In this document: one piece after another, positions 1 through 50,724 of the stretch
Position numbering within the stretch: the first letter of the stretch is position 1
How the letters are laid out: each line of letters starts with the position of its first letter
NCBI GenBank assembly: GCA_042564205.1
Contig: JBHPLN010000001.1
Location: 13,626-77,625 of the forward strand
Length of the DNA: 64,000 nt
DNA from: Fidelibacterota bacterium
GTDB taxonomy: Bacteria; Fidelibacterota; Marinisomatia; Marinisomatales; JAHJCW01
Direction of reading: 5' to 3'
Notes under the pieces: model-generated
What the model saw: only the letters and a program-made list of their open reading frames with translations
Database searches by the model: none
Told to the model about the DNA's origin: nothing
Program-made: the position numbers and the translations under genes

Positions 1-733
1 GTTTCCAGGTATCTTGCGTTTTATCTATTTTTTTTACACCTGAAATGCCGTGATCATTTTTCCAGTCTGCAATTAATGGTAGACCTAAAGTTTGAGGCCG
101 GTCCCGCATGAAAATCAGTATAATGATAGCGACTAAAATACAAAGCACTCCCGGCCCGATGAATCCGGCGCGCCAGCCCCATAAACTTACCAATGTGGCA
201 ATACCAACAAAGGTCAAGCCTTCACCGATTGAATGAGCGGTACTCCAAATACCATAATAGCGACCCCGTTCACCGATGCTAAACCACTGGGAGAGCGCAA
301 CAATTCCGGATGGTGCTCCAAAACCTTGAAACCAGCCATTTAATCCCCATAAAATCATCCATAATAATAATATCGTCGGAGAGAATCCCATAATCAAGTT
401 GATAAGAGCGGATACAAATACGCCCAGTGCAAAGAATTTCCTGATGTTGGCGTGATCCGCTAAAAAACCATTAGTGAGTTTACCAAATGCATAAGTGTAG
501 AAAATTGCCGATCCAATTACGCCCAAATCCTGGGCTGAGAAAATGCCGCTGTCAATCAGCGGTTTCTTTACTACCGAAAGCACCAGACGGCAAGTGTAAA
601 CGAAGCCATATCCGATCGTAATAACCAGCAGAACCTGTGTTCTGAGTCTTCGGTAAATATGATTTATTTCCTTTGTATCGGAAAGTGTTACTTGATCATC
701 ACCGGTCTTTAAGAATTGAAAAAGTTTTCTCAT
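1..733 (-). CDS. MFS transporter, organophosphate:Pi antiporter family (GlpT/UhpC-like); N-terminal part only, gene runs off the window
   Basis: Absent from the ORF track because it is open at the window edge. My translation from the ATG (complement of 731-733) reads MRKLFQFLKTGDD..RRLRTQVLLVITIGYGFVYTCR..GFLADHANIRKFF..LWGLNGWFQGFGAP.. with no stop down to position 1. These motifs parallel GlpT/UhpC TM1-TM5. Confidence 0.75.
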   Translation of the reverse strand, partial: MRKLFQFLKTGDDQVTLSDTKEINHIYRRLRTQVLLVITIGYGFVYTCRLVLSVVKKPLIDSGIFSAQDLGVIGSAIFYTYAFGKLTNGFLADHANIRKFFALGVFVSALINLIMGFSPTILLLWMILWGLNGWFQGFGAPSGIVALSQWFSIGERGRYYGIWSTAHSIGEGLTFVGIATLVSLWGWRAGFIGPGVLCILVAIIILIFMRDRPQTLGLPLIADWKNDHGISGVKKIDKTQDTWK

Positions 734-762
734 ATTATCTCCGCTAATTCCTTATAAGTTTA

Positions 763-1761
763 TCAATCATACTTTATCTTAATGGGTGTGTTCAATTCCA
801 TTGATTGTTTCGCTGCCAAGCCCACTTTCGTTGACATTAACCCATCGGCACCATCTACAAGTGGGTCACTATTGTTTTTTAACGCGTCGATAAATGCTCG
901 CATTTCATTCCAGAACGATGCCTTGTAGCGCTCTAAGAAAAAATAAAGCGGCTTTTCGGTTTGAACGCCCGCTGCGGTCATCAGCGTCGTTGTGGTTGCA
1001 ATATTATTTTCAGCAGTGATACTGCCCTTCGAACCAAAAGCTTCGATTCTTTGATCATAGCCATATACCGCCTGGCGACTATTATCGATAACGGCTAGTG
1101 CTCCGTTTTGCAATTTCAGCGTGGTCAAGGCGGTATCTACATCGCCGGCTTTCCCAATTGCATCATCAACTAGAACTACTCCTTTTGCAAACACCTCTTC
1201 GATTTCGCTCCCGGATAAAAATCGAACCATATCAAAATCATGGATAGCCATGTCAAGAAATAAGCCCCCTGAAGATTCGATATATTCCAGCGGTGGTGGT
1301 GCTGGGTCTCTCGCAATAATTTTTATAAGATGAAGGTCGCCAATAGCGCCCTCCAAGATTGATGATTTAATCTTGGCAAAATCCGGATCAAAACGCCTGT
1401 TAAAACCAATTTGTAGTTTTGTATTATTTTTATTAACTACATCCAAGACTTCGTTAATGACTTTAGGATCTAGCGCAATTGGCTTTTCACAGAAGACATG
1501 TTTGTGTGCCATTGCTGAATCTTTGATTTGCTTGGCGTGCAGTGTCGATGGTGAAAAAATAAGAACAGCATTGATTTGTTTGGATTGATAAATCTCAGAT
1601 GCACTGGTAACACTGAAAAGTCTCCTTTCCTCAACCCACGCTTTATCCAGTAGTGGATCGGTGACCATTGCAATATTCACATCTGGCATCTGTAATAAAT
1701 TATTTACATGCAGTTTTCCTATTCTACCCAGACCAATAACTCCTAACGTTAACTTGTTCAT
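763..1761 (-). CDS. Gfo/Idh/MocA family NAD(P)-dependent oxidoreductase (inositol 2-dehydrogenase-like)
   Basis: N-terminal Rossmann motif GVIGLGRIGKLH, EKP motif (FCEKPIAL) and GFNRRFD motif. Paralogous to the neighbouring ORF. Stop/start overlap with the upstream gene indicates an operon. Confidence 0.85.
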   Translation of the reverse strand: MNKLTLGVIGLGRIGKLHVNNLLQMPDVNIAMVTDPLLDKAWVEERRLFSVTSASEIYQSKQINAVLIFSPSTLHAKQIKDSAMAHKHVFCEKPIALDPKVINEVLDVVNKNNTKLQIGFNRRFDPDFAKIKSSILEGAIGDLHLIKIIARDPAPPPLEYIESSGGLFLDMAIHDFDMVRFLSGSEIEEVFAKGVVLVDDAIGKAGDVDTALTTLKLQNGALAVIDNSRQAVYGYDQRIEAFGSKGSITAENNIATTTTLMTAAGVQTEKPLYFFLERYKASFWNEMRAFIDALKNNSDPLVDGADGLMSTKVGLAAKQSMELNTPIKIKYD

Positions 1762-2765
1762 TGAATGATCCTCACTGGTAAGTTTGTAGCATACGATTCC
1801 TTTGCTGCCAGTGCTATCGATACAGCCTGCCTTGCATCATCACCCTTGACTGACGGCTCTGTTCCTTCATTCACGCACCGAAAAAAGTATTCCAATTCGC
1901 TCACATAGGCTTCGGCATAGCGCTCGATAAATGAATAAAACGGCATATCAAAATACACACCCGAGGATAAGCTCAGGGCGGTTTGCGTGGGCCGTGTGTT
2001 CTGTGCTCTGATGCTTCCCTTGGAACCAAAAACTTCAATCTGCTGATCATACCCATAATGCGTTTCTCTTGACACGTCAATTACTGCAATAGCGCCATTA
2101 CTTAATGTGAGCGTTAATACGGCCGTGTCAATATCGCCCAATGCCCCAATTTCTGGGTCAACGAGTACTGCTCCACTGGCAAAAACCTCTTCCACTTCGC
2201 TATCACAGAGATATCTTATTGTATCAAAATCATGAATGCAAAAATCCATGAATAATCCACCTGAATTGGGGATGAATTCAAGATCCGGGCGCTGTGGATC
2301 ACGGTTGGTAACTTTTATTATATGGGGCACACCAATCGATCCTTCTTCAATTGTTTTCTTAACTTTCTGAAAATCACGGTCAAACCGACGGTTAAAACCA
2401 ATCTGGAGAGCTACCTTGTTATCGGTTACCGATCTTATCGCTTTTTGAATATCTTTAGGTTCAAATGCGACTGGTTTTTCACAAAAAATAGCTTTCCCAG
2501 CTTGAGCGGCTAAGCAGATCATATCCACATGTGTGGATGAAGGTGTTGTGATTACAACGGCATCAATTTCTTGCGTGCTAAGTAATTCCTCAGGATTATC
2601 CAATACTTTTTGAATACCCAAATCCTGAGCCCAGCTATCATCAGGCTCAATATCGGCAACTGCCAGCAAATTGACCATTGGAATTCGTGTCACAATATTT
2701 TCGGCATGCATTTTCCCTATCCGCCCCGTACCGATCAACCCTACATTTATTTTTTTAACTGCCAT
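1758..2765 (-). CDS. Gfo/Idh/MocA family oxidoreductase (inositol 2-dehydrogenase-like)
   Basis: GLIGTGRIGKMH, FCEKPVAF and GFNRRFD motifs. I place the start at the internal ATG (MAVKKINVG) because AAGGGGG lies 6 nt upstream and it avoids overlap with the upstream gene. The track start is 2789. Confidence 0.85.
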   Translation of the reverse strand: MAVKKINVGLIGTGRIGKMHAENIVTRIPMVNLLAVADIEPDDSWAQDLGIQKVLDNPEELLSTQEIDAVVITTPSSTHVDMICLAAQAGKAIFCEKPVAFEPKDIQKAIRSVTDNKVALQIGFNRRFDRDFQKVKKTIEEGSIGVPHIIKVTNRDPQRPDLEFIPNSGGLFMDFCIHDFDTIRYLCDSEVEEVFASGAVLVDPEIGALGDIDTAVLTLTLSNGAIAVIDVSRETHYGYDQQIEVFGSKGSIRAQNTRPTQTALSLSSGVYFDMPFYSFIERYAEAYVSELEYFFRCVNEGTEPSVKGDDARQAVSIALAAKESYATNLPVRIIQ

Positions 2766-2775
2766 AGTAACCCCC

Positions 2776-3741
2776 TTATTTACTATCAATATTTTCCTGA
2801 GTGATCATTTCGATCTTTACCGGGATGTATCCCGCGAGGGCAGCACCCTCAATAACCTCATTTGCTTTGAGTATTGCCTCAAATCCCATTTCATAGGGAT
2901 GCTGCGCAATTGAACCATTCATTAATCCTGTTCGAATTGCTGCTCGCGCATCTGCAACAGCATCAAATCCAATGACTAGTATTTTATGCGCGGATTTTGA
3001 CACAGCTATTGCCTCAATCGCCCCTAGGGCCATCATATCATTGCAGGCAAACAAGGCTTGAACTTCAGGATTGGATTGCAGAATATTCTGAAATACGTTG
3101 AAACCCTGGTCACGCTCCCAGTTTGCTGTTTGTGAGGCGATAATTTCAATATCGGTATATTGATCAATGATTTCATGGAATCCTCGCAAACGCGCATCGC
3201 CGGTTTCATGTCCTGGGATTCCTTCCAGGATGGCGATTTTACCACGACCTTGCAATTGATCTGCAAAATATTTTCCAGCAATACGACCACCTTCAACGTT
3301 ATCTGAACCAATGAATGTTGCGATGGATGCCCCCAACTCTGCTAAGGTTGTTTCATCAATTCTGGTGTCAACTGCTAGCACTGGTATGTTGGCTCTATTC
3401 GCTTTTACAATGGCCGGGACAATTTCCCGTGAACCGCTGGGTGTCACGCAGATTGCGTCAACCTTTCTTTGAATTAAATTTTCAATGATCTGCATTTGTT
3501 TTTCAACATCGACTTCACGTTCAGCAGCTTGAACAATTAGTTTAATATTTAACTGTTCTGCGGCTGCTTCAGCTCCGCGCTGCATATCAATAAAAAAGGG
3601 ATTGTTAAGGGTTTTCATTACCAGTGCAATCGTCGCTGGATCGCTCTTTGACGGTGCGCCACGCTGGCAACTAAAGATTGTGCATAAACCTAGGGCAACT
3701 ATTACTATTTGAATAATTTTGAGATGTTTTGAATTACTCAT
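2776..3741 (-). CDS. Sugar ABC transporter periplasmic binding protein (ribose/RbsB-type PBP1), lipoprotein
   Basis: Signal peptide with lipobox (CTIFSC). Type-I periplasmic binding fold signatures (ALVMKTLNNPFF, GDARLRGF, FACNDMMALGA). Confidence 0.9.
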   Translation of the reverse strand: MSNSKHLKIIQIVIVALGLCTIFSCQRGAPSKSDPATIALVMKTLNNPFFIDMQRGAEAAAEQLNIKLIVQAAEREVDVEKQMQIIENLIQRKVDAICVTPSGSREIVPAIVKANRANIPVLAVDTRIDETTLAELGASIATFIGSDNVEGGRIAGKYFADQLQGRGKIAILEGIPGHETGDARLRGFHEIIDQYTDIEIIASQTANWERDQGFNVFQNILQSNPEVQALFACNDMMALGAIEAIAVSKSAHKILVIGFDAVADARAAIRTGLMNGSIAQHPYEMGFEAILKANEVIEGAALAGYIPVKIEMITQENIDSK

Positions 3742-4694
3742 TATCTGGATCCTCTGCGTTTAATGGTGGTATCAATCAAAACGGCAATGATTATCACAGC
3801 ACCAATAATGGTTTGTTGCAGAAAACTTGATACTCCTAAAAGATTTAGACCATTGCGCAGTACACCCATAATTAAAGCGCCAATTAAAGTCCCCACGATT
3901 CTTCCTTCGCCACCCATCAAACTAGTACCACCGATGACTGTTGCGGCAATGGCGTCCAATTCATACATCATCCCGGCAATCGGTTGGGCTGAATTCAGAC
4001 GCGCTGTCAGAATCACCGCTGCCAGACCACTTAGCATCCCACAAATGCCATATACGGCTGCTTTATACCGCGTAACGTTAATCCCTGAAAGTAGCGCTGC
4101 TTCTTCATTACCCCCGATTGCATATGTGTAGCAACCAAGCTTGGTGTGCGTTAATATGAAATGTGCGATTAGGTACACCAGAATCATTAAAATGACTGGA
4201 ACAGGTATGAACATAATTTCGCCCGTGGCAATTGAGCGGAAATTTAGATCAAAACCAGAGATGGGTCGCCCCTGTGTATACATCAAAGCCGCGCCGCGCG
4301 CGACACTCATCATACCCAAGGTGGCAATAAAAGGAGGCAATTTACCATAAGCGATTAAAGACCCATTGATGAGTCCGCATATAAGACCTACCCCCAATCC
4401 CAATATGATCGCTAAACTCATTGGTAAATCGGCCTCCAGCGCACTGGCCAGCACTACTCCTGAAAAAGCCACAATTGAACCAACCGACAAATCAATTCCA
4501 GCGGTAATTATCACAAAGGTAAGTCCAACTGCAATGATTGCGTTTATGGATGTTTGTTGAGCTATGTTAACCAGGTTTGGAACGGTTAAAAAATGCGGGG
4601 ATAGAACCCACATCACCAAGATCAGACCAATCAATCCAAACAACGTACCTAATTGACGGCCATAGCGGTGCATTATATCCTTAAGCCGCACCAT
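3741..4694 (-). CDS. Sugar ABC transporter permease (RbsC/AraH family)
   Basis: Polytopic membrane protein with GGIDLSVGS and IGG.SL.GG motifs typical of BPD_transp_2 sugar permeases. Translationally coupled to both neighbours. Confidence 0.9.
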   Translation of the reverse strand: MVRLKDIMHRYGRQLGTLFGLIGLILVMWVLSPHFLTVPNLVNIAQQTSINAIIAVGLTFVIITAGIDLSVGSIVAFSGVVLASALEADLPMSLAIILGLGVGLICGLINGSLIAYGKLPPFIATLGMMSVARGAALMYTQGRPISGFDLNFRSIATGEIMFIPVPVILMILVYLIAHFILTHTKLGCYTYAIGGNEEAALLSGINVTRYKAAVYGICGMLSGLAAVILTARLNSAQPIAGMMYELDAIAATVIGGTSLMGGEGRIVGTLIGALIMGVLRNGLNLLGVSSFLQQTIIGAVIIIAVLIDTTIKRRGSR

Positions 4695-6177
4695 ATTCTC
4701 CTAATGCAGTCTGCATTATTTCTTCCTGTGAGGTTTCATTTGGTCTGAATTCACCAACAATTGCACCTTGATGCATTACTAAAATTCGATTGCACATACC
4801 CAACAGTTCCGGGAGCTCTGAAGATATCATTAAAATTGCTGCACCCTCTTCCAGCAGCCTGTTCATTAGGTGATAAATTTCCACTTTGGAACCGATATCG
4901 ATTCCCCTTGTTGGTTCATCGAATATTAAGATATCGGCATCCGTGCATAAACATTTACTGATTACAATTTTTTGTTGATTGCCACCGCTAAGATATTGAA
5001 CGCTCTGATCTAAGCCGGTGGTCTTGATATGTAAATCTTTGATATAACGTTTTGCCGCTTGGCGTTCTTTGGCCCTATTTATAACACCCCATTTAGAAAG
5101 ATCAGATATACTTGCCAGGCAAATATTGTTTTTAACGGAAAGCTGCATAACCAGACCCTGGGTTTTACGATCTTCGGTTATAAAGCCAAGCCCCTGGTCA
5201 ATAGCTGTTTGCGGGGAATCTATGGTTGTATCTTTGCCATGAATCCTAATTTCACCTTGCTCGGGCTTTGCAATTCCATATATTGCATGCGCTAGTTTTG
5301 TTCTACCAGACCCTAATAGTCCCGCCACTCCTAAGATTTCTCCACGGTGCAATGAAAAATTTATATCATTCAGTTCTACTCCCAGCTGCAGGCCAGTGAT
5401 TTTAAGTACTTCTTCTTCAACCTTATTCGCGCGGGGCGGATAAATGTCAATTATATCGCGGGCCACCATCAATTTTATAAGCTTGTCGCTCGTAACAGTT
5501 CTAAGATTGTGGACACCAACATTTTGACCATCTCTGAGCACTGTTACCCAATCACCTATCTCGAATATTTCTTCTAGTCGATGAGAAATATATATAATCG
5601 ATACGCCTGAAGACTTTAACCTATCAATAACCTTAAAGAGCTGGGTGATTTCCGACTGCGTCAAGGCAGAGGTTGGTTCATCCATAATTAGGATCTCAGC
5701 ATTGAGTATAAGTGCCTTCGCCACCTCTATCATCTGTTGCTGAGCCACGCCCAAATTAGCGATATGTGTATCGCCATCAAGAACAATGCCCAATTGTTCT
5801 AAAACTTTTTGGGAAGTCTGCCGCATATTTACCCGGTCAATTGTCTTTAAGGGCGTTAGTTTTTCATGCCCTAATAGAATATTTTCATCGATGCTCATTT
5901 TTGGAATGAGGTTGAATTCTTGGTAAATTATACTCACTCCGTGGGCGATTGCATCTTGGGGATTATTGATTTCAACTGGAGCGCCATTAATATATATGTC
6001 ACCGCTATCCTTTTTATAAGCACCGCTAATTATTTTCACCAGGGTTGATTTTCCTGCTCCATTTTCACCAAGTAATGCATGAACGGTGCCCTTTTCTACT
6101 TTAAGATTGACAGCTTCAAGGGCTGGTACGCCATAGAAATTTTTTGATATATTTGTTAGTTCAATTGCACAATTCAT
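4681..6177 (-). CDS. Sugar ABC transporter ATP-binding protein, duplicated ABC domains (RbsA-like)
   Basis: Walker A GENGAGKST, signature LSGGNQQK and a second degenerate NBD. 498 aa is typical of CUT2 ATPases. Confidence 0.9.
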   Translation of the reverse strand: MNCAIELTNISKNFYGVPALEAVNLKVEKGTVHALLGENGAGKSTLVKIISGAYKKDSGDIYINGAPVEINNPQDAIAHGVSIIYQEFNLIPKMSIDENILLGHEKLTPLKTIDRVNMRQTSQKVLEQLGIVLDGDTHIANLGVAQQQMIEVAKALILNAEILIMDEPTSALTQSEITQLFKVIDRLKSSGVSIIYISHRLEEIFEIGDWVTVLRDGQNVGVHNLRTVTSDKLIKLMVARDIIDIYPPRANKVEEEVLKITGLQLGVELNDINFSLHRGEILGVAGLLGSGRTKLAHAIYGIAKPEQGEIRIHGKDTTIDSPQTAIDQGLGFITEDRKTQGLVMQLSVKNNICLASISDLSKWGVINRAKERQAAKRYIKDLHIKTTGLDQSVQYLSGGNQQKIVISKCLCTDADILIFDEPTRGIDIGSKVEIYHLMNRLLEEGAAILMISSELPELLGMCNRILVMHQGAIVGEFRPNETSQEEIMQTALGEYGAA

Positions 6178-6272
6178 ATCTAACGATCCCAGGAATTACG
6201 GCTATTGGACACGAAAGAAAATTATCTGATTCACTCAGCTAATACTCAAATTAAAAGCCACTTTTTCTGCGA

Positions 6273-7073
6273 TTACATTAGTGGTTTAATATTATCAATA
6301 ACTCTTTTGGCAGCTGTATCTGGGTCTGGATATGGTAATATTTCAGCAGATACGGTTCCTTGATACCTAATCTGTTTCAAGGTATTAAAGATTTTTTCAA
6401 AATCTAAATGCCCTGCCCCAGGAAACTGACGATTTGAATCGGCAATATGGACATAAAATAATTTCCGACCGGCCGCTTTAATACTATTATAGATGGATAC
6501 TTCTTCGATATTCATATGAAAAGTATCAAGCAGAAGTCCGACATTGTCCCTATCTAGTGCACGGATAAAATCTAAACCCTCTTGGGCCGTATTAATCATT
6601 TGGGCTTCATAACGATTACATGGTTCGATAGCTAATTTGACAGCTTTATCTACATCGGCGCATTCTTGCATAGCCTCAAGGAACCAGCGATCAGCTATTT
6701 CGCCAGCAACATCCTGATCAGGATTTCCCCTAATTAACCCAATAATAACAATGGCTCCAAATTGCTTTGCTAAATGAATCTGACTTTTGATTCGATTAAC
6801 TGCCTTTTCCCTAATGTTCTGATCCTTATTGGTAAATGATAACCCGTCTTCGCCAAATGCTTGGCCGGTCCCGATTGCAGTAACGCTTAGGCCATTATCT
6901 GAAAGCCAATCTTCCAAGCTTGGAAGATCTAGCAGTGCGGGATCCCGCACTGCTAGTTCAACACCAGTATACCCGAATGATTTTAATTTTCTCAAATTGG
7001 GCTTCAAGCTGCCTTGGTAAGCCAATGCAGAGAATCCTGTTGCTTGAGTTGATACTACAATGCTAAGCTGCAT
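6273..7073 (-). CDS. Sugar phosphate isomerase/epimerase, xylose-isomerase-like TIM barrel (IolO/IolE-like candidate)
   Basis: AP_endonuc_2-type pattern (GVELA.., IEPCNRYE, LLDTFHMNIEE, HIADSNR). Function inferred from context only. Confidence 0.75.
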   Translation of the reverse strand: MQLSIVVSTQATGFSALAYQGSLKPNLRKLKSFGYTGVELAVRDPALLDLPSLEDWLSDNGLSVTAIGTGQAFGEDGLSFTNKDQNIREKAVNRIKSQIHLAKQFGAIVIIGLIRGNPDQDVAGEIADRWFLEAMQECADVDKAVKLAIEPCNRYEAQMINTAQEGLDFIRALDRDNVGLLLDTFHMNIEEVSIYNSIKAAGRKLFYVHIADSNRQFPGAGHLDFEKIFNTLKQIRYQGTVSAEILPYPDPDTAAKRVIDNIKPLM

Positions 7074-7077
7074 TTAA

Positions 7078-8172
7078 TTACAATCCCATTTTTCGAATTG
7101 AATAAATTGGGCGCCAGCCTTCCGTGAATGGTTCTTTCAAATATGGCTTCATTTCCTCTTCTGTACGCATTGTGGTTTTTTCTATGGGCGGAACCGTGCC
7201 CGCTGGAAATGCTTCCAAGATCTCATCGTGCACTAAGGTTAAATAACTCAATATTGCCGCAATTGTACGTTTGGCTTTCTGAGCCTTGGCAATATTCGGT
7301 CGGCCAACAACACCTTCTGGGATTGATCCTAATTCAGTTGGGAAATGCCCTTGTCCTTCGGACCATTTGCTTGGCCTGGCAAATGGTTCCACAGCTTTAT
7401 CAAAGTGCCCTTCGGGCAAATAACCTTTTACTTCTGTCTCTTCGGCTAACGCCATTTCAACATACTCTGGTTCCAATAAAAGCATTACCGAAGTTTCCGC
7501 TTCATCGGCATGGACAAAATTATCATCCCAATCTCCGCCCCGTTCCTTCGTTCTGAAAAATTCGCGTACAGCTCGATGCCAGTCAATCACCCTAAAAATA
7601 CCTGGTAGATTCCAAGTTTTTTGCAGTTCCTGGATGGCTGCTTCAAGCAACCATTGATGACCATGATTATTTATCATTATCATTTTCCTAAATCCATCGT
7701 TCCATAAACCAACCATAACATCAATTAGTACTTTTTTTAATACTTCATCTTCTAAATGTATGGTTCCCGGCATTCCAATATGATGGTGGGGGTGTCCACC
7801 ATAATTGAGTGGAGTAAAAACAAGATTAACTGGAGCACCTTTTTTTGCTGTGAACCTTCTTACCCCTTCTAAAATCTGGGTCACCATAAATGTGTCTAGT
7901 GCTGTAACAGTGTGCCTACCGTGTAACTCAGTGCACCCAATAGGAATGAATACAATATCATTCTTTTTCCTGTTATCAACAACTTTCTGTCTAATTGTAT
8001 TTTGGACGTAAGAACCCGGTTTTCCAAGTTCCGAGGATGAGGGGATTCCGTAATCTTTAAGAATTTTTTCTATTTCAGAGTCGGAGGCTTCCCAAATCTG
8101 TTTTTTAAGTCTTCCTACTGATGTGTTTTCAAACCGCAGATCCTCACGGTCTGTTGCTAGCCAGTCGTTCAT
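7078..8172 (-). CDS. Creatininase-family metal-dependent hydrolase (IolN-like candidate)
   Basis: Creatininase family motifs IPIGCTELHGRH...D, NNHGHQ and HADEAETSVML. Confidence 0.75.
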   Translation of the reverse strand: MNDWLATDREDLRFENTSVGRLKKQIWEASDSEIEKILKDYGIPSSSELGKPGSYVQNTIRQKVVDNRKKNDIVFIPIGCTELHGRHTVTALDTFMVTQILEGVRRFTAKKGAPVNLVFTPLNYGGHPHHHIGMPGTIHLEDEVLKKVLIDVMVGLWNDGFRKMIMINNHGHQWLLEAAIQELQKTWNLPGIFRVIDWHRAVREFFRTKERGGDWDDNFVHADEAETSVMLLLEPEYVEMALAEETEVKGYLPEGHFDKAVEPFARPSKWSEGQGHFPTELGSIPEGVVGRPNIAKAQKAKRTIAAILSYLTLVHDEILEAFPAGTVPPIEKTTMRTEEEMKPYLKEPFTEGWRPIYSIRKMGL

Positions 8173-8188
8173 TTAAAATCTCCTTTAT

Positions 8189-9376
8189 CTATTCGAAATT
8201 CTTAATAGTGATTTTTACTTCGTTTCTATCTGTCTGTAACATTTTTAGATTATCCCCCACTTCATCCAAAGAGATTCGTTTTGTAATCATAGGTGATACA
8301 TCCATTCCAGTTGCCATGCATTGGATAACATTTGGAAATGTTCCATGTCCGGAGTGTCCTTGAGATCCAACAACACTGGCTCTTCGAACCTGAAGAACTT
8401 CACCGTTTAATGGAATCTTGTCGTCCGCCCGCGCTACGACTACAACACTTGTATTTAGTGCTTTGCCTTCCCAAATAATTTTCTCAACATCTGACCAAAC
8501 AACACTGGGTAATCCGGTTGCCTCAAGAATAATTCCCGCTCCCACGCCATTTGTAATATCTAAAACAGTATCGCCCACATCTACAGCCATTGGATCTATT
8601 GCATGTGTGGCACCCATATCTAAAGCCATTTGTCTTCTAGATTCAGATGGTTCCGAAAGGATTACTGCTGCTGCCCCTTGTCGCTTCAATATAGCACAGG
8701 CTGCTGCTCCAATAGGACCACCGCCAAGAATGACAACATTTTCACCTGGTCTAATTCCACCACCTCGTTCGATAACTGCATTATACGCTACCGAGGTGGG
8801 TTCAACAAGACTCCCCAGTTCGTACATTTTATCTGCTCCGAAAAGTTCACCAATACCGTCAATGCTCCAACAGTAGCGTGCATCAACCTTTATATATTTA
8901 GCATATGCACCGTCAGTTGAAAAACCCAATTCTTCTAATTTTTCACAATGATTTGGAAAACCATCTGAGCAAGGTTTACACGTAGCACACCAAATCATTT
9001 CCTCGGCACAAACCGATTCGCCTTTTTTAAAAGCTTTTCCTGTGGCTTTATTGAAGGCATCTTCTCCCGCTTCTACGATAACACCGGAAAACTCGTGACC
9101 CAATGTTGCTGGAAATGCTGTTAATCCTGGATAAAAGATGTACCCATCATCATCGGCTTGACGCATATGAACATCACTCCCGCAAATTCCACAGGATTTG
9201 ACTTCGACTAATACTTCCGTTGGACCAGGCTTTGGTATATCTTTTTCTGAAATTTCAATTTGTGGATTTCGCCAAACTTTACTTCCGAGATAGGTTAATT
9301 TGCCATCGATGTCTTTGGAACCTAATTTGAATCCTGGGCGTGGATCCCAATCTGCACTAAGAACTACTGCTCTCAT
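8189..9376 (-). CDS. Zinc-dependent alcohol/polyol dehydrogenase (MDR family; IolM-like candidate)
   Basis: GICGSDVHM and GHEFSGVIVEAG zinc-ADH motifs. GGGPIGAAA Rossmann motif. Confidence 0.85.
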   Translation of the reverse strand: MRAVVLSADWDPRPGFKLGSKDIDGKLTYLGSKVWRNPQIEISEKDIPKPGPTEVLVEVKSCGICGSDVHMRQADDDGYIFYPGLTAFPATLGHEFSGVIVEAGEDAFNKATGKAFKKGESVCAEEMIWCATCKPCSDGFPNHCEKLEELGFSTDGAYAKYIKVDARYCWSIDGIGELFGADKMYELGSLVEPTSVAYNAVIERGGGIRPGENVVILGGGPIGAAACAILKRQGAAAVILSEPSESRRQMALDMGATHAIDPMAVDVGDTVLDITNGVGAGIILEATGLPSVVWSDVEKIIWEGKALNTSVVVVARADDKIPLNGEVLQVRRASVVGSQGHSGHGTFPNVIQCMATGMDVSPMITKRISLDEVGDNLKMLQTDRNEVKITIKNFE

Positions 9377-9407
9377 AAGAGTTTCCCCCTTATTTATTAT
9401 TATTTAG

Positions 9408-10514
9408 TTAAAGTTTATTATCGTTACTAATATCTTTTACTGAAGACCGCTCAACGAATTTTGACTTCAGTACTGTTTGCTTAACTTCTGTTTTATTATT
9501 TTGAATTCGATTTAATAAAATTTTCATACTTTCATGTCCCATCTCATGAATCGGCTGATGCATTGTTGTTAGTTCCATCGGGTGGGATCTTTTATATACT
9601 AAATCATCGTAGCCTGTAATAGATATATCATCCGGAATATGAATACCCATACTATTGGCAACGGAATATATGCGATACGCTACTCTATCATTTCCTGCAA
9701 AAATAGCCGTAAACTTGTTTTTTTGAGTTAATAATTCAGTAATCGCATCTATATAAATATCTTTATTATACGGTCCGACATCAGCAATTACTATGGATGT
9801 ATCCATTTTAATATCATTATCGTTTAACGCTTTTTTATAGCCTTCAAATCGCTGTCTTTCAGTACTGAATCGAGTACTCAAAATTGTAGCTATTTTCTTA
9901 TGTCCTTTCTTAATTAAATATTGGTTTAATTCATATGCACCTTCAAAATTATTTGTTGTCACATAATCAACTTCAACATTTTGGATCGTGCGGTCCGCTA
10001 AAACAACTGGAATGTTTTGTTCCTGCAGCGTGGCAATAATTTTTTTATTTTTCTCATCTGATGCCGCAGTCGGAATAAAAACAACGCCTTGTACTCCATT
10101 TTCTATAAAGCGCTCTACGTGATAATTCGCTTTCTCGTACAAATCATCTGTATTCCCTAAGATGACGCTATGTTTGGAAATTATTGCCTCATCCTCAAAG
10201 CCCCTTGAGAGTTCTGGGGCATAACCTTTTCTAATATCGGGTAATAATATCCCAATTACAGGTCTTTCATTATTTCGTTTAACCCGCTTCAATACAAACG
10301 TGCCCAATCTTCTTTTTCTAACTAAATATCCATGCTGGGCTAAATTTTGAATTGCGTGTCTGACCGTTGCCCTGGCAAGTCCTGTTGTTTTTACAAACTC
10401 TTCTTCAGTGGGTATGCTGTCGCCAGGCTGATATACTCCATGTTCGATTTGCTCAATTAACCATGTCTGGAGTTGATAGTATTTAGGTATTGGGCTGTTT
10501 TTATCTATTATCAC
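9408..10514 (-). CDS. Transcriptional regulator with GntR-type wHTH N-terminus and LacI/PBP1-type sugar-binding C-terminus (AraR architecture)
   Basis: N-terminus PKYYQL...GD.IPTEEEF...TGLARATVRHAIQNL is GntR-like. The C-terminal 270 aa resembles the LacI-family effector domain (GILLPDI.., VVFIPT.., AIFAGNDRVA). GTG start. Confidence 0.8.
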   Translation of the reverse strand: MIIDKNSPIPKYYQLQTWLIEQIEHGVYQPGDSIPTEEEFVKTTGLARATVRHAIQNLAQHGYLVRKRRLGTFVLKRVKRNNERPVIGILLPDIRKGYAPELSRGFEDEAIISKHSVILGNTDDLYEKANYHVERFIENGVQGVVFIPTAASDEKNKKIIATLQEQNIPVVLADRTIQNVEVDYVTTNNFEGAYELNQYLIKKGHKKIATILSTRFSTERQRFEGYKKALNDNDIKMDTSIVIADVGPYNKDIYIDAITELLTQKNKFTAIFAGNDRVAYRIYSVANSMGIHIPDDISITGYDDLVYKRSHPMELTTMHQPIHEMGHESMKILLNRIQNNKTEVKQTVLKSKFVERSSVKDISNDNKL

Positions 10515-10529: not shown

Positions 10530-10543
10530 ATTGTATATACAAT
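10530..10543. promoter_or_regulatory. Candidate operator 1: perfect 14-bp palindrome ATTGTATATACAAT
   Basis: Perfect palindrome 16 bp upstream of the regulator start codon. Same 12-bp core as 10745-10756. Resembles the AraR box half-sites TTGTAC/GTACAA and the GntR GT-N-AC rule. Confidence 0.5.
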
Positions 10544-10744
10544 ATAAAAGCGATTTATTGATTCAAGCAAGTGGATTTCTGCTTATAATTATATACAAAT
10601 CCAATAATATTATACCATTGATGTTCAGTTAAAATAATTTGTGTTAAGTATATATAATTAATTATATTATATTTATAAGTATCATTCCTTTATGTATTTT
10701 CAGAGAATATTTGTCTTGATATTTAAATTTTGTTGTTTTACAAT

Positions 10745-10756
10745 TTGTATATACAA
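10745..10756. promoter_or_regulatory. Candidate operator 2: 12-bp palindrome TTGTATATACAA
   Basis: Identical 12-bp core to operator 1, 37 bp upstream of the TonB-dependent receptor ATG. Confidence 0.5.
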
Positions 10757-10792
10757 TAATACTATTATGACCTAACTTAAAAGGGGGTCCCC

Positions 10793-13558
10793 ATGATCCG
10801 AAAAAAATCATTTTTGTATCTATTCTCCGTTCTGATGATTTGTCTCCAGGTTTCAATAGCTGGAACAGTAACAGGCCGAGTAACAGATGCAACCACAAAT
10901 GACTATTTACCCGGTGCTAACGTTTTAATCCAAGGAACTAACTACGGTGCTGCTACTGATCGTGCTGGTTCATTCAGTATACCAAATATTCCGAGTGGCG
11001 ATTACACGTTATCAGTTCAGTACATTGGTTATACTGAATACACTCAAGAAATCACAGTATCCGAAAACATAAGGGATAATCATTTCGAAATCGTGATGAA
11101 TGTAAGCTTTGTTGAAATGGGGGATGTAGTTGTTGAAGGATTGAGGCATGGTCAAGCGAAAGCATTGAGTCAGCAGAAATCAGCAGACAACATTAAAAAT
11201 ATTGTATCCGAGGAACAGATGGAAAAATTCCCCGATATCAACTCTGCTGAAGCTATGCAAAGACTACCTGGAATTTCTATTCAACGCGACCAGGGTGAAG
11301 GACGTTACGTGCAAATAAGAGGAACTCCTCCCCGAATGAATTCAATGAAGGTTAATGGAGAGAATATCCCTTCCCCAGAAGGTGGCGATCGCACAGCACA
11401 GATGGATATTATTCCTGCCGATCAACTTGCATCAATTGAGGTAATTAAAGCGATAACACCCGATATGGATGCAAATGCTATAGGCGGTGCAGTAAATTTG
11501 ATTACAAAAAGTGCACTCGATTATGAAGAACCGGTTTTTAATGCTACTGCAGGTGGAGGCTACGCAAATATTTTAGGAAAAGGTATTTATCAGGGCGCCG
11601 TTAATTATGGTACCAGATTTGGTGAGAACAAAGATTTTGGTATTATGTTCAGTGCAAGTTATTTAAGATCAGATCGTGGATCTCACAACAACGAAATGGA
11701 ATGGGGTGAAGTTGACGACAACGACGACAATGAAATACCCTGGGCTTTAGAGAATATAGCATTAAGGCATTATGATGTTAGAAGAGATAGAATGGGTTTT
11801 TCTACCAATTTGGATTATCGACCTGATAATGATAATTCGTATTCGATCAAAGCTCTATATGATGAGTATCTGGACATTGAAACTCGAAATGAACTTACCG
11901 TTGAACCTGACGGTTTCAATACAGCAACAGATTTAACCGAAGCCGAGTTTGTTCATGAGATGAAAACAAGAGATCAAGCAGTATCACTTTATAGTATTAC
12001 GGGTAGCGGTAAAAATCATTTCGGCGCCTTTACGCTTGATTACTCTTTGTCATACAATTATGCTCAAGAAAAAGAAGACAGACATTTCGAACCAGCATTT
12101 GAAATGGATGAAACCCCTGATATGACATGGAACCTTTCAGATCGTGATAATCCGCAATTTATAATTGACGACCCCGACCAGGATTATTACCTTAATGCGG
12201 ACAACTTCGTTTTGGATGCTATGGAATGGCACGACAACTTAACAACCAGTACAGATATAATCGGATCTGTTAATTTTGAGACACCACTTAGCTTTATGGG
12301 AAGCCAAACCAAGTTGAAATTTGGTGGTAAAGTCTCAATGAAGGATAAAGAACGTGAAGAAAATATATGGGATTATGAATGGGATGGTGATGATGATTTA
12401 TTATTGAGTCAGTTTACCGGTGATGATGTATCTGATTTACTTGATGATAAATATAATTTCGGACCTACTATTGACCCGGGTAAAATGGAAGATTTTTTCG
12501 ATGCCAATAAAAATGGTGACTTTGTGGGTGAATTTATTAATGAAGATTCAGATGCTGCTACTTATGATGCAACTGAAGATATTTTCGCGTTTTATCTTCA
12601 GGCAACAATGAATTTTGATAATCTCATGATTCTTGCCGGTTTTCGTAACGAAATTACAAAGACATCTTACAACGGTAATGAGGTAGTTTTCGACGATGAA
12701 GGTGATTATGTTGAAACTAATCCACTTTCTGCTGAGAAATCTCATAATCATATTTTACCATCTCTCCATGTTAAATATTCTGTTTCACCACAGACTAATA
12801 TTCGGGCAGCTTTCACAAGTGGTTTAGCACGACCTCATTATGAACACATGGTACCTTTTAGTGTTGTATTGCATGAGGATGAAGAAATAGAAAGAGGAAA
12901 TGCTGACTTGGTACCAACTACAGCTTATAGTTTTGATCTTTTAGGAGAACATTATCTTTCAGGTATTGGTATTGTATCAGGTGGAGTCTTCTACAAGATC
13001 TTAGATGATATAATTTATCCTACCGTTATTGAGGAAGATGGTGGAATCTATGACGGCTATGAAGTTTCACAACCATGGCAACCCGAAGGCGCTGATCCTG
13101 CTACAATTATGGGAGTTGAAGTAAACTGGCAGCAACAATTATCATTCTTACCCGGGTTCCTTAACGGGTTTGGAATAAATGCAAACTACACCTATACTGA
13201 ATCAGCTGCCGATCTACCGGGTAGAACTGATATAACATTACCGGGACAAGCAGGTAATACGGCTAACTTTGCATTAAGTTATCAAAAAGCCGGATTTACT
13301 GGCCAATTCAGTATTAATTATCAGGATAGTTTTATCAGTGAAGTTGGTGAAGATGCAGATCATGATATTTATTATAAAGATCATATTCAGTTCGACTTCT
13401 CCGCCAATCAGGAAATCAAGAAAGGATTGAATGCTTATTTTCAGTTAGTAAATCTGAACAACGCTCCCCTTACTTTCTATATGGGAAAAGAAGACAGACC
13501 TATACAACGTGAATACTACTCCTGGTGGATGCAGGCAGGTTTGAAATTTGATTTCTAG
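10793..13558 (+). CDS. TonB-dependent outer-membrane receptor with N-terminal CarboxypepD_reg-like domain
   Basis: Signal peptide, then GTVTGRVTD..PGANV..G...TD..G.F.I.NIP.G.Y.L.V..IGY (carboxypeptidase-regulatory fold). Plug motifs follow (NIKNIVSEEQMEKFPD, RYVQIRG), then a long beta-barrel ending in aromatic ..GLKFDF. RBS AAAGGGGG. Confidence 0.9.
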   Translation: MIRKKSFLYLFSVLMICLQVSIAGTVTGRVTDATTNDYLPGANVLIQGTNYGAATDRAGSFSIPNIPSGDYTLSVQYIGYTEYTQEITVSENIRDNHFEIVMNVSFVEMGDVVVEGLRHGQAKALSQQKSADNIKNIVSEEQMEKFPDINSAEAMQRLPGISIQRDQGEGRYVQIRGTPPRMNSMKVNGENIPSPEGGDRTAQMDIIPADQLASIEVIKAITPDMDANAIGGAVNLITKSALDYEEPVFNATAGGGYANILGKGIYQGAVNYGTRFGENKDFGIMFSASYLRSDRGSHNNEMEWGEVDDNDDNEIPWALENIALRHYDVRRDRMGFSTNLDYRPDNDNSYSIKALYDEYLDIETRNELTVEPDGFNTATDLTEAEFVHEMKTRDQAVSLYSITGSGKNHFGAFTLDYSLSYNYAQEKEDRHFEPAFEMDETPDMTWNLSDRDNPQFIIDDPDQDYYLNADNFVLDAMEWHDNLTTSTDIIGSVNFETPLSFMGSQTKLKFGGKVSMKDKEREENIWDYEWDGDDDLLLSQFTGDDVSDLLDDKYNFGPTIDPGKMEDFFDANKNGDFVGEFINEDSDAATYDATEDIFAFYLQATMNFDNLMILAGFRNEITKTSYNGNEVVFDDEGDYVETNPLSAEKSHNHILPSLHVKYSVSPQTNIRAAFTSGLARPHYEHMVPFSVVLHEDEEIERGNADLVPTTAYSFDLLGEHYLSGIGIVSGGVFYKILDDIIYPTVIEEDGGIYDGYEVSQPWQPEGADPATIMGVEVNWQQQLSFLPGFLNGFGINANYTYTESAADLPGRTDITLPGQAGNTANFALSYQKAGFTGQFSINYQDSFISEVGEDADHDIYYKDHIQFDFSANQEIKKGLNAYFQLVNLNNAPLTFYMGKEDRPIQREYYSWWMQAGLKFDF

Positions 13559-13677: not shown

Positions 13678-14811
13678 ATGAAAATATTTAACAAAGCACA
13701 ATATATTACCGCCATCCTATTAATTACGATTTTTTCCATTTTCACAATAGGATGCGAAAAAAAAGTAAATACTTATGTTATTAAACCTGCAGTCGTTACC
13801 GAAATAATACCACATGATACTGATGATCCGGCAATATGGATCAATCCCGAAGATCCATCAAAAAGTTTAATTATTGGTACCGACAAAGATGATGACGGAG
13901 CACTATATGTCTATGATCTGGATGGGAATATAATTGAGGAAAAGACTGTAAAAAATTTAAAACAACCAAACAATGTTGATATTGAATACGGGATAATTCT
14001 GAATGGCGTAGCCACTGACATTGCGGTAACAACTGAAAGATTAGCAAATAAAATCCGTGTTTACAGTTTACCAGATATGAAAGAAATTGATAATGGGGGG
14101 ATTGAAGTTTTTGAAGGTGAGGATTTAAATGCTCCAATGGGAATTTCACTATATAATCGACCATCTGATGGAAATATATATGCTATAGTAGGCAGGAAAA
14201 AAGGGCCATCAACTGGGTACTTGTGGCAGTATTTGCTTGAAGATGATGGCAACGGTAATGTAAAAGGTACAAAAGTCAGATCATTTGGCAATTACAGCGG
14301 TTTTAAAGAAATTGAATCGATCGCAGTAGATGATGATTTAGGGTATGTGTATTATTCAGATGAGCAGATTGGTGTAAGGAAGTATCATGCAGATCCTGAT
14401 GCACCAGAAGCAGACAAAGAATTGGCAATAATTCCTACGCAAGATTATCTAAAAGATAATGAAGGAATTTCAATTTACTGTAACGATGACGGAACCGGTT
14501 ATATTTTAGTTTCTGATCAAAACGCAAGTAGATTTAGAATTTATTCAAGAGAAGGTACTCCTGAAGAGTTAGATGAAGATCCTGAAGATTACGTACCTGC
14601 TCGTCCACATTTACATAAATTATTAAAAATTGTTAATGTTTCAACGCTACGAAGTGATGGTTCAGAAGTTACCAAGGTAGCTCTTGGTAATAAATTTCCA
14701 ACCGGTTTATTCGTAGCAATGTCAGATGATAAGACTTTCCAATTGTATCATTGGTCAGATATAGCAGGTGATGATTTGGAAGTGATGACAACTAATCTTT
14801 ATAATCTATAA
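13678..14811 (+). CDS. Beta-propeller phytase (3-phytase, BPP family), lipoprotein
   Basis: Lipobox FTIGC. Collinear matches to Bacillus PhyC as I recall it: DDPAIW, NNVDI, DIAVTT.R, ESIAVDD..GYVYYSDE, DNEGISIY...G.GYILVSDQ..S.F.IY. Confidence 0.85.
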   Translation: MKIFNKAQYITAILLITIFSIFTIGCEKKVNTYVIKPAVVTEIIPHDTDDPAIWINPEDPSKSLIIGTDKDDDGALYVYDLDGNIIEEKTVKNLKQPNNVDIEYGIILNGVATDIAVTTERLANKIRVYSLPDMKEIDNGGIEVFEGEDLNAPMGISLYNRPSDGNIYAIVGRKKGPSTGYLWQYLLEDDGNGNVKGTKVRSFGNYSGFKEIESIAVDDDLGYVYYSDEQIGVRKYHADPDAPEADKELAIIPTQDYLKDNEGISIYCNDDGTGYILVSDQNASRFRIYSREGTPEELDEDPEDYVPARPHLHKLLKIVNVSTLRSDGSEVTKVALGNKFPTGLFVAMSDDKTFQLYHWSDIAGDDLEVMTTNLYNL

Positions 14812-14917: not shown

Positions 14918-15892
14918 ATGTATATGAATCTGCTAATAATCATTATTTTAGGATTCAATCTCCTTGTAGCTCAAGATTCATTTACTTTCAATTACTGTAA
15001 TTCGCAACCCGAACAACATCCGCGTAGTCAATCAATGATTTTTTTCAAAAATGAAATTGAAAGACGTACAAACGACAGGATACATGTTGAAAACTATTTT
15101 TCCGCAATATTAGGAACCGAGATGGAAGTCCTTGATATGGTTGCCACAGGTGCATTGCAAGGTACTCGTAGTGGTGGTTTCATTCATGCAAACAAAAAAT
15201 ATTATCTTTTTATGTTACCCTTTCTGGTTGATAATTGGGATCAAGCGATTCAACTGGTTAACAGCGAATTCACAAATGCCATTAATAAAGAAGCACAATC
15301 CAACGGATTTCATATCCCTGCCTGTGGAATTTCTCAAGGGTTTCGAGCTCATACAAATAATGTACGTCCAATTCAATCTCCAGAAGACTTAAAAGGTCTA
15401 AAAATGCGTGTACCAGCGCAAGAAGTATACGTTGTGAATTCACAAATTCTGGGCGTTAATCCACAGCAATTACCATATAGTGAAGTCTATATGGCACTGA
15501 AAACAGGAGTAGTTGATGGACAGGATAATGCAGTGTCAAATATCTGGGATTTTAAAATATATGAAGTCCAGAAATATCTCACCATATCCTATTATGCTAC
15601 TGGTCCCGATCCATTCATGGTGAATCTTGATTGGTATAACAGCCTGCCCATTGAACTTCAAAAGACATTTGATGAAGTGGCGCTGGAAACAATGAAATAT
15701 AGTGATCAACTGAATCGTGAGCAGGAAGGATTATACATAACGCAGCTTGAAGAAAAGCTCGAAACAAATTATGTAACCCCGGGCGATCTGAAAAAATTTC
15801 GCACAGCAACACTACCTGTTTATCAATATTTTATAGATAAGGGTTATTTTTCCTGGGATGATATCAGATCTGCTCGTGAAAGCATCAAATAA
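14918..15892 (+). CDS. TRAP transporter substrate-binding protein (DctP family)
   Basis: DctP-family pattern including the carboxylate-binding Arg context (QGFRAHTN) and LKTGVVDGQDN. Followed by DctQ and DctM genes. Confidence 0.85.
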   Translation: MYMNLLIIIILGFNLLVAQDSFTFNYCNSQPEQHPRSQSMIFFKNEIERRTNDRIHVENYFSAILGTEMEVLDMVATGALQGTRSGGFIHANKKYYLFMLPFLVDNWDQAIQLVNSEFTNAINKEAQSNGFHIPACGISQGFRAHTNNVRPIQSPEDLKGLKMRVPAQEVYVVNSQILGVNPQQLPYSEVYMALKTGVVDGQDNAVSNIWDFKIYEVQKYLTISYYATGPDPFMVNLDWYNSLPIELQKTFDEVALETMKYSDQLNREQEGLYITQLEEKLETNYVTPGDLKKFRTATLPVYQYFIDKGYFSWDDIRSARESIK

Positions 15893-15906
15893 GCGCGAGT
15901 CTTTAA

Positions 15907-16398
15907 TTGAAAAAAATGAAATGGTTAAAAAAAATTGAACTGGTTTTCACTCGGCTTTTAGAATACATCCTTCGCCTTCTTTTTTTATGTTTTTTAACTA
16001 TAGTTATTGTTTTGGTATTTCTACGGTATGGATTTAATACAACAATTGTTGGGGGAAATGAGTTAATTGTAATACTGTTTATCTATACTTCGGCTATCGG
16101 AGCGGCCGTTATTATTGGTAGAAAGGAACATATCGCGATTACCTATTTTGTTCAAAAAATGTCCCCACAAATAAATCGATTAGTTAATATATTAAATTTT
16201 TTATTGGTTGCAATTCTAAATGGTGCCTTGATCAAATACAGTTTTCCGTGGATTAGTAAGACCGGCAGCTATTCAACAGCCACATTAGGGATACCGCAGT
16301 TGTACTTGCAAATAATAGTACCAATAAGTTGTAGTATAGCAATTTTTTATTGCCTAGTTCAAATATTTCTGTTGTTAAACCCCGCGAAAACACATTAG
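15907..16398 (+). CDS. TRAP transporter small permease (DctQ family)
   Basis: 163-aa four-TM protein between DctP and DctM. The start could be TTG 15907 or ATG 15916. Confidence 0.75.
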   Translation: MKKMKWLKKIELVFTRLLEYILRLLFLCFLTIVIVLVFLRYGFNTTIVGGNELIVILFIYTSAIGAAVIIGRKEHIAITYFVQKMSPQINRLVNILNFLLVAILNGALIKYSFPWISKTGSYSTATLGIPQLYLQIIVPISCSIAIFYCLVQIFLLLNPAKTH

Positions 16399-16405
16399 TT
16401 AATCC

Positions 16406-17692: not shown

Positions 17693-17740
17693 TAAAAACA
17701 ATTTTAATCAAAAAAAACAAATGATGAAGGAAAAAAGAAA

Positions 17741-18634: not shown

Positions 18635-18650
18635 CCGATAAGGAGATATC

Positions 18651-19981: not shown

Positions 19982-20011
19982 AGGGAGTTAATAGTTTATT
20001 ATTAACTCCCT
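19982..20011 (+). terminator. Hairpin, weak terminator candidate
   Basis: AGGGAGTTAAT pairs with ATTAACTCCCT. The T-tract is poor. Confidence 0.4.
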
Positions 20012-20090
20012 TCTCGTATATTACTCTCAATCACTACCCATACTGAAAAGAATCAGGAAACCTTTGAAAAATGGGCACCAAATCATAGTC

Positions 20091-20141
20091 ATTAAATTGG
20101 ATAAGAAGGTCTTTTATATTATTGATTTTATTGTTTTTAGA
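20091..20141 (+). repeat. Conserved 51-bp upstream block, copy 2
   Basis: See 19554-19604. Lies about 80 bp upstream of the second DUF4242-like gene. Confidence 0.7.
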
Positions 20142-20220
20142 TGCATTGTTAATAATTATACTTCACATAATTATTAACAGCTATTTTAATTAGCAGGCCG
20201 TTAAAAGGAGAAGAAACAAG

Positions 20221-20583: not shown

Positions 20584-20641
20584 AAAGGATTAATTAGAAT
20601 TACATTTCTAATTTCCCGATAAGAAACTAAGTAATGATTAT

Positions 20642-49397: not shown

Positions 49398-49400
49398 GTT

Positions 49401-50700: not shown

Positions 50701-50724
50701 TTAGGAACATTACATACAACACGA

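Follow-up and report, generated by a model that had tools for sequence, protein, structure and literature searches.

How bacteria of the uncultured lineage Neomarinimicrobiota (Marinimicrobia/SAR406-related) might acquire and degrade inositol is a question raised by a 64-kb stretch of a Fidelibacterota genome (contig JBHPLN010000001.1), in the following called the window. An initial annotation had noted there, between positions 763 and 9376, inositol genes of the IolG-IolM-IolN-IolO type in place of the IolCDEBJ route, together with a phytase and a TonB-dependent receptor. We followed this up by scanning all open reading frames (ORFs) of at least about 160 aa in the window against NCBIfam and/or Pfam and by comparison with related loci from other genomes. 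We consider it likely that the locus is a myo-inositol catabolic operon of the Thermotoga-type oxidative-hydrolytic route, here in an uncultured member of the Neomarinimicrobiota and co-regulated with phytate capture.

In Thermotoga maritima, the operon TM0411-TM0416 comprises, according to summaries in two later papers (PMC5931981, PMC12632266), IolG (TM0414), IolM (TM0412), IolN (TM0413), IolO (TM0416) and a kinase (TM0415). In the window, the corresponding genes belong to a series of ten genes on the minus strand, reaching from position 10514 down to the window edge:

2-733, minus strand: transporter of the major facilitator superfamily (MFS), putatively of the organophosphate:phosphate antiporter type (UhpC/GlpT/PgtP-like), N-terminal 244 aa (NCBIfam, Pfam MFS_1)
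763-1761, minus strand: IolG-type inositol 2-dehydrogenase, copy 1, 332 aa, Gfo/Idh/MocA family (TIGR04380)
1758-2789, minus strand: IolG-type inositol 2-dehydrogenase, copy 2, 343 aa, TTG start, Gfo/Idh/MocA family (TIGR04380)
2776-3741, minus strand: substrate-binding lipoprotein of a CUT2 (ribose/allose-type) sugar ATP-binding cassette (ABC) transporter, presumed inositol binder (PF13407, 216 bits)
3741-4694, minus strand: ABC transporter permease, RbsC-like (PF02653, 164 bits; NF007067, 345 bits, below the cut-off of 398)
4681-6177, minus strand: ABC ATPase with two ATP-binding domains, RbsA-like (PF00005 twice; NF008030, 554 bits, below the cut-off of 745)
6273-7073, minus strand: IolO, predicted 5-keto-L-gluconate epimerase, xylose-isomerase-like TIM barrel, 266 aa (NF041099, PF01261)
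7078-8172, minus strand: IolN, predicted 3-dehydro-scyllo-inosose (diketo-inositol) hydrolase, creatininase fold, long form, 364 aa (NF041098, PF02633)
8189-9376, minus strand: IolM, predicted scyllo-inosose 3-dehydrogenase, Zn-dependent medium-chain type, 395 aa (NF041097, PF08240, PF00107)
9408-10514, minus strand: AraR-type regulator with a GntR winged helix at the N-terminus and a LacI/PBP1 sugar-binding domain at the C-terminus, transcribed first in the operon (PF00392, PF13377/PF00532)

Since the genes overlap or are spaced by no more than 95 bp, they form one operon. All ORFs of the initial annotation were found again at the same coordinates, on the minus strand and with the fold assigned to them. 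Its operon of 763-9376 stands as far as these genes are concerned and has to be extended at both ends, by the regulator (9408-10514) and by the truncated MFS gene (2-733).

Concerning the identity of the enzymes, NCBIfam holds curated equivalog models for the Thermotoga-type inositol enzymes. IolM reaches 501 bits with NF041097 (cut-off 450), IolN 311 bits with NF041098 (cut-off 245) and IolO 337 bits with NF041099 (cut-off 300); both IolG copies also pass, with 416 (copy 1) and 423 bits (copy 2) against TIGR04380 (cut-off 355). The runner-up models remain far under their own thresholds; for IolM this is for example threonine dehydrogenase, for IolN creatininase and for IolO psicose epimerase. 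IolM matches T. maritima TM0412 (3ip1) over its full length with 582 bits and 63% identity. The motifs CGICGSD, GHE and C-x2-C-x2-C-x7-C are invariant in both proteins; CGICGSD...GHE is read as the catalytic zinc site and C-x2-C-x2-C-x7-C as the structural zinc site. IolO shares 46% identity with TM0416 (2zvr), and TM0414 (3ezy) is the best solved-structure match of both IolG copies (322 bits for copy 1, 307 bits for copy 2), which share 47% identity with each other. The comparison with the T. maritima proteins, which had been proposed as a check, thus matched IolM, IolO and IolG with TM0412, TM0416 and TM0414, and the top characterised homologues lie in the Thermotoga-type inositol pathway and not, as the initial annotation had left open, in unrelated ones. 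Its call of a Thermotoga-type IolG-IolM-IolN-IolO set is thereby supported.

The initial annotation had correctly placed IolN in the creatininase family, as the match to PF02633 (Creatininase, 156 bits) demonstrates. A PDB search returned no close solved relative for it, the best match being a putative creatinine amidohydrolase with 50 bits. The protein carries no signal peptide and is of a long form with about 45-50 extra N-terminal residues, so that the match to NF041098 begins at residue 53. This long form (364 aa) is common to FCB-type, Atribacterota and Thermoanaerobacterales loci. Some Bacillota loci encode a short form with about 41% identity to the IolN of the window, presumed to be the Thermotoga type. 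Across phyla IolN retains 79-87% identity (compared in L001-L049), versus about 50-58% for IolO and about 50-60% for the regulator, which points to either an unusually strong constraint or a recent lateral spread of IolN. Regarding base composition, the guanine-plus-cytosine (GC) content of the iol operon (window 1-10000) is about 0.39-0.43, versus about 0.32-0.38 in 10001-44000; this mild step could reflect acquisition. A GC content of 0.42 in the operon versus about 0.36 beside it, together with the cross-phylum identity of IolN (80% or higher), is suggestive of lateral transfer.

IolN is 100% identical to an NCBI protein of 'Candidatus Neomarinimicrobiota bacterium' named '3-dehydro-scyllo-inosose hydrolase', and hence the call at the gene level is not new. 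KEGG orthologue groups likewise exist for iolM and iolN (PMC13234733). The expectation that this locus would extend a rarely documented pathway is right insofar as the pathway seldom appears in papers; it was overstated in view of its annotation by NCBI and KEGG and of a scan with one genome per species, in which at least 227 genomes encode an IolM relative.

The canonical route is missing from the window: none of IolB, IolC, IolD, IolE and IolJ was found among the scanned ORFs, in agreement with the initial annotation, which had noted the absence of IolD, IolC, IolB and IolJ from the window. With the IolE model (cut-off 290), IolO reached no more than 37 bits. Among the neighbours in the related loci scanned, no canonical iol gene was found either.

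For the conservation of the locus we analysed the best 80 of the at least 227 species genomes with an IolM relative, one genome per species. More than ten phyla are represented among these 80 loci, including Neomarinimicrobiota/Fidelibacterota, Calditrichota, KSB1, Ignavibacteria/Melioribacter, Cytophagia, Acidobacteriota, Lentisphaeria, Atribacterota, Bacillota, Spirochaetales, KSB3 and Aerophobetes. IolM, IolN and IolO are mutually adjacent in at least 61 of the 80 loci, and orthologues of the AraR-type regulator (49-73% identity) stand beside iolM in 67. Linkage to iolMNO was observed for the CUT2 ABC transporter in about 30 loci and for the MFS gene in 21. The TonB receptor is found in 11 loci and the phytase in 6-7, namely in the closest Marinimicrobia and one Acidobacteriota.

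In the window, the receptor and the phytase lie upstream of the iol operon and are transcribed in the opposite direction, separated from the regulator by a divergent intergenic region of 278 bp (between regulator and receptor) that holds two copies of a palindrome:

10530-10543, no strand: candidate operator, perfect 14-bp palindrome ATTGTATATACAAT, lying 16 bp ahead of the start codon of the regulator gene
10744-10757, no strand: TTTGTATATACAAT, a further copy of the palindrome with one mismatch, lying 36 bp ahead of the start codon of the TonB receptor gene
10793-13558, plus strand: TonB-dependent outer-membrane receptor with N-terminal carboxypeptidase-regulatory-like domain (TIGR01782, PF07715 Plug, PF13715)
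13678-14811, plus strand: beta-propeller phytase, predicted lipoprotein (PF02333, 158 bits)

The association of the operon with a phytase/receptor system described in the initial annotation is thus a divergent one. The receptor scores 517 bits with TIGR01782 (cut-off 310), and the phytase, which adjoins it directly downstream, clears the PF02333 cut-off of 21. The N-terminal signal of the phytase contains a lipobox (..FTIGC), typical of a lipoprotein, and its catalytic activity is predicted. The pair of receptor and phytase adjoining iol genes is kept in L003-L006, L032 and L081-L084. Four near-identical contigs from four JGI samples repeat the layout of receptor-phytase-TRAP (tripartite ATP-independent periplasmic transporter) and regulator-iolMNO; these contigs end before the MFS gene.

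The regulator combines a GntR helix-turn-helix domain (PF00392) with PF13377/PF00532, which is the architecture of the AraR subfamily. Elsewhere in the 64 kb the palindrome has only one further match, with two mismatches. Its consensus TTGTmTAkACAA, with a background rate of 0.10 per kb, occurs within about 100 bp upstream of 33 out of 37 orthologous regulators, the chance expectation being about 0.4. The two-site layout, with one copy on the regulator side and one on the receptor side, is also present in L003, L004, L005, L032 and L081-L084. In various loci, other phyla included, additional copies are located in front of iolM, the TonB receptor or the second Zn-dependent dehydrogenase/MFS genes. 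This conservation is phylogenetic-footprint evidence for candidate autoregulation by the regulator, which in this lineage probably also controls the receptor-phytase arm. A motif that is shared by both divergent operons and conserved upstream of regulators suggests one regulon.

Beyond the antiporter-like gene the operon is cut by the window edge. The MFS fragment has its best NCBIfam matches in UhpC (182 bits), GlpT (160 bits) and PgtP (159 bits), all below cut-off because only 244 aa of the protein are visible. Orthologues in related loci are 52-70% identical to it, and metagenome relatives reach at most 69%. In a separate metagenome scan centred on the MFS gene, downstream sequence was sufficient in 51 loci, and in 48 of these (among L085-L164 and the related loci) a TM0415-like kinase follows directly; a calcineurin-like metallophosphoesterase is often next after the MFS-kinase pair. 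In L003, L004, L006 and L020 a PfkB kinase is the next gene after MFS. The L003 copy (20009-20896) matches the TM0415 structures 1vk4, 5ysp and 7e4l with 133-138 bits and keeps K171, F221, R229, R232, D234 and M266, the residues named as the pyrophosphate signature of TM0415 (PMC5931981). Locus L086 has the exact gene order of the window, IolO-ABC-IolG2-IolG1-MFS, followed by kinase, phosphoesterase and phytase. The window ends inside the MFS gene and before the position of the kinase; from synteny, the operon probably continues beyond the edge with a TM0415-type kinase. The two IolG genes in tandem, followed by the MFS-kinase pair, likewise make up a conserved module. In the window and its closest relatives this IolG pair occupies the position directly upstream of MFS; in many related loci a second Zn-dependent dehydrogenase, about 25% identical to IolM, is located there (e.g. 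L018:14261-15300, with equivalents in L021, L023, L024, L030, L032, L039, L041, L044 and L047).

From these elements, the following pathway is proposed. The TonB receptor and the lipoprotein phytase would capture phytate and dephosphorylate it outside the cytoplasm to inositol or lower inositol phosphates. The compartments fit the predicted signals, since the phytase and the ABC binding protein (lipobox ..IFSC at its N-terminus) carry lipoprotein signals and IolN has none. Free inositol may then be imported by the CUT2 ABC transporter, and the two IolG paralogues would oxidise it with nicotinamide adenine dinucleotide (NAD) to scyllo-inosose. In a second oxidation IolM would yield diketo-inositol, whose ring would be opened hydrolytically by IolN to 5-keto-L-gluconate, followed by epimerisation to D-tagaturonate by IolO. 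This order of steps, from inosose through diketo-inositol and 5-keto-L-gluconate to D-tagaturonate, had been given in the initial annotation and agrees with the summaries of Rodionova et al. 2013 given in PMC5931981 and PMC12632266. D-tagaturonate would then enter a hexuronate/2-keto-3-deoxygluconate (KDG) route encoded elsewhere. The ATTGTATATACAAT palindromes are probably bound by the AraR-type repressor, product of the first operon gene, which may keep both arms repressed until an effector appears; with one palindrome before its own operon and one before the receptor-phytase-TRAP operon, both arms would answer one signal.

Several points weigh against this reading. By most accounts, beta-propeller phytases stop at lower inositol phosphates and do not release free inositol; this would call for a further phosphatase, of which the window shows none. 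Even the model organism T. maritima does not grow on inositol (PMC3750489), so that what the route does physiologically is uncertain there too. No gene for the steps that follow D-tagaturonate was found within the window; UxaA/B, UxaE, UxuA/B, KdgK and KdgA are all missing among the scanned ORFs. The palindrome is lacking upstream of four of the 37 orthologous regulators, and L002 and L006 have no match even at two mismatches or fewer. Within the set, IolN diverges most, with its late start of the model match and about 41% identity to the short forms. The ABC binding protein has its best PDB matches in ribose/allose binders (2ioy, 5dte) and reaches only 101 bits with the Caulobacter inositol binder IbpA (4irx). 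Finally, the functions of enzymes and transporters in this lineage are assigned from sequence.

The missing exit steps have a counterpart in other lineages. In Atribacterota/Bacillota-type iolMNO loci (L058:15397-16443, L061:5881-6641 and cluster members), an aldolase of the 2-keto-3-deoxy-6-phosphogluconate/2-keto-4-hydroxyglutarate (KDPG/KHG) type and a conventional PfkB sugar kinase are linked, a linkage that fits an exit via the KDG route. Neither a KDPG/KHG aldolase nor a conventional PfkB sugar kinase is linked in the Marinimicrobia-type loci.

The distance of the binding protein from the known myo-inositol binder also fits the view that the same enzymes act mainly on another cyclitol, such as scyllo-inositol, D-chiro-inositol or a methylated or phosphorylated inositol; the IolG paralogues would then be different entry specificities and the phytase would serve phosphorus scavenging only. 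The identity of only 47% between the paralogues, the conserved tandem IolG pair before MFS-kinase and the occurrence of the phytase in only 6-7 of the 80 iolMNO loci are in line with it. Yet both IolG copies pass the cut-off of the myo-inositol 2-dehydrogenase equivalog, and the shared candidate operator ties the phytase arm to the catabolic arm, so that we judge this view unlikely. Since all inositol isomers converge on IolM, IolN and IolO, it would change the substrate and not the mechanism. It is also conceivable that the route is accessory or partly redundant, with canonical iolCDEBJ genes elsewhere carrying the main flux and IolM, IolN and IolO for example supplying 5-keto-L-gluconate or tagaturonate to a sugar-acid pathway fed by the TRAP transporter. 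Our view covers 64 kb of a contig that measures 207 kb or more, the divergent operon contains TRAP, beta-hydroxyacid dehydrogenase and second TIM-barrel genes, and an IolO-like epimerase of another bacterium acts in L-glucose/L-galactose catabolism (PMC12632266). However, a complete IolG-M-N-O set with its own regulator and transporter constitutes a self-contained entry pathway, and with no canonical iol gene in the window or among the scanned neighbours, a merely accessory role appears very unlikely.

Generic Zn-dependent dehydrogenases, creatininase-fold and TIM-barrel enzymes of an unrelated pathway, neighbours by chance, might also have been misnamed through annotation transfer, given that all four folds are large and functionally diverse superfamilies and that IolN has no solved relative beyond the match of 50 bits. 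Against this stand four independent curated equivalog cut-offs, all passed, the 63% identity to a characterised IolM, the adjacency of IolM, IolN and IolO across many phyla and the presence of the TM0415 kinase homologue in related loci; such an artefact would be a most improbable coincidence. The reading as a phytate-linked myo-inositol operon of the Thermotoga type is retained as the likely one.

A further-reaching version of it concerns the kinase. TM0415 of the Thermotoga operon is a myo-inositol 1-kinase that depends on pyrophosphate, and the natural function of its class is described as unresolved (PMC5931981). One regulon could turn phytate into both phosphorus and carbon, with the TonB receptor and the lipoprotein phytase supplying free inositol to the ABC transporter and lower inositol phosphates to the antiporter, and with the TM0415-type kinase, the constant partner of the antiporter, running in reverse (inositol phosphate plus phosphate to inositol plus pyrophosphate). 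We regard this as a doubtful proposal; the evidence behind it is gene linkage. If true, ester energy would be conserved before the IolG-M-N-O enzymes consume the ring, and the kinase class would receive its first physiological role.

Downstream of the phytase, the divergent operon continues with the following genes:

14918-15892, 15907-16398 and 16406-17692, plus strand: TRAP transporter DctP, DctQ and DctM, respectively (TIGR00787, TIGR00786, PF03480, PF04290, PF06808)
17741-18634, plus strand: beta-hydroxyacid dehydrogenase (PF03446/PF14833)
18651-19514, plus strand: second xylose-isomerase-like TIM barrel (PF01261)

The DctPQM genes score above the cut-offs of TIGR00787 and TIGR00786; a PDB search returned no informative ligand-bound homologue for the TRAP binding protein and no sequence match for the second TIM barrel (18651-19514). 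The beta-hydroxyacid dehydrogenase and the second TIM barrel fall below every NCBIfam cut-off, the best match being L-threonate dehydrogenase (227 bits versus 350). An L-threonate-type module for 17741-19514 was considered and not adopted, given these scores and given that neither a kinase nor a decarboxylase follows. The block 14918-19514 is syntenic only in the closest Marinimicrobia (L003, L005), and the membership of the beta-hydroxyacid dehydrogenase and the second TIM barrel in the inositol/phytate system is uncertain.

What does the locus mean beyond its own genome? The 'Thermotoga' inositol route is no curiosity of thermophiles, being carried by many uncultured lineages, namely Marinimicrobia, Calditrichota, KSB1, Ignavibacteria, Acidobacteriota, Atribacterota and others, and in marine Marinimicrobia it appears to be wired to phytate capture via the shared candidate operator. 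Such a link bears on the use of organic phosphorus and the attached carbon by deep-ocean, particle-associated bacteria. Literature searches returned nothing on the Thermotoga-type inositol route or on phytase in Marinimicrobia. Moreover, the analysis yields candidates for an operator and for an inositol ABC transporter as well as a pair of antiporter and kinase genes with tight conservation, and TTGTmTAkACAA is a ready-made regulon marker (related loci L003-L049, L081-L084).

Other parts of the window were inspected as well. A scan for promoter consensus sequences was uninformative (70 found versus 68.8 expected from shuffles), and no operon boundary is marked by any of the terminator-like sites. 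The region 48792-53721 encodes a LexA repressor together with two polymerases, one Y-family polymerase-like and one of the DnaE type (560 bits with the error-prone DNA polymerase model, below the cut-off of 939); its GC content of 0.45-0.48 lies above the rest of the window, and it resembles a cassette for SOS mutagenesis. The middle of the window (23843-26635, 34669-36171, 37750-42257) holds a cluster of several large sensor histidine kinases of the multi-PAS/GAF type and of hybrid kinase/response regulators.

Compared with known systems, the locus stands closest to the T. maritima operon, with which it shares the same four catabolic enzymes in one operon, the lack of IolC/D/E/B/J genes and, in syntenic relatives of the window, a TM0415 homologue with the pyrophosphate-signature residues. 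The differences are found around this core. The T. maritima regulator is a ROK-family IolR (PMC3750489), whereas the window encodes an AraR-type protein (GntR helix-turn-helix plus PBP1); the transporter is InoEFGK in T. maritima and a CUT2 ribose-type ABC system in the window, and one IolG contrasts with two paralogues. IolN of the window has the additional 45-50 or so N-terminal residues, an organophosphate-antiporter-like MFS gene is added, and there is the divergent link to TonB receptor, phytase and TRAP system. The host of the window is a mesophilic marine diderm, T. maritima a hyperthermophile. With iolABCDEFGHIJ of Bacillus subtilis, the locus has in common the first step, the IolG reaction from myo-inositol to scyllo-inosose, and the overall purpose. 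After inosose, the B. subtilis-type route proceeds by dehydration (IolE), thiamine diphosphate-dependent hydrolysis (IolD), isomerisation (IolB), phosphorylation (IolC) and cleavage (IolJ), none of which is encoded in the window.

Pairs of a beta-propeller phytase and a TonB-dependent receptor were reportedly described in aquatic Gram-negative bacteria by Lim et al. in 2007. As in these pairs, the PF02333 phytase of the window lies immediately downstream of its receptor; in contrast to them, the same candidate operator stands before this pair and before a complete operon for inositol catabolism, and phosphate release thereby appears tied to the use of the carbon ring. The regulator is built like B. 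subtilis AraR, as a chimera of a GntR helix-turn-helix and a LacI/GalR-type effector domain, and the TTGT-N4-ACAA-type palindrome of the window presumably resembles the AraR box. Unlike AraR of B. subtilis, however, the regulator of the window appears from its position to be linked to inositol and phytate genes and not to arabinose genes. The locus is a further member of a pathway type whose enzymes are already recognised by annotation resources; it differs in its regulator and its transporter and stands in a context of phytate harvesting.

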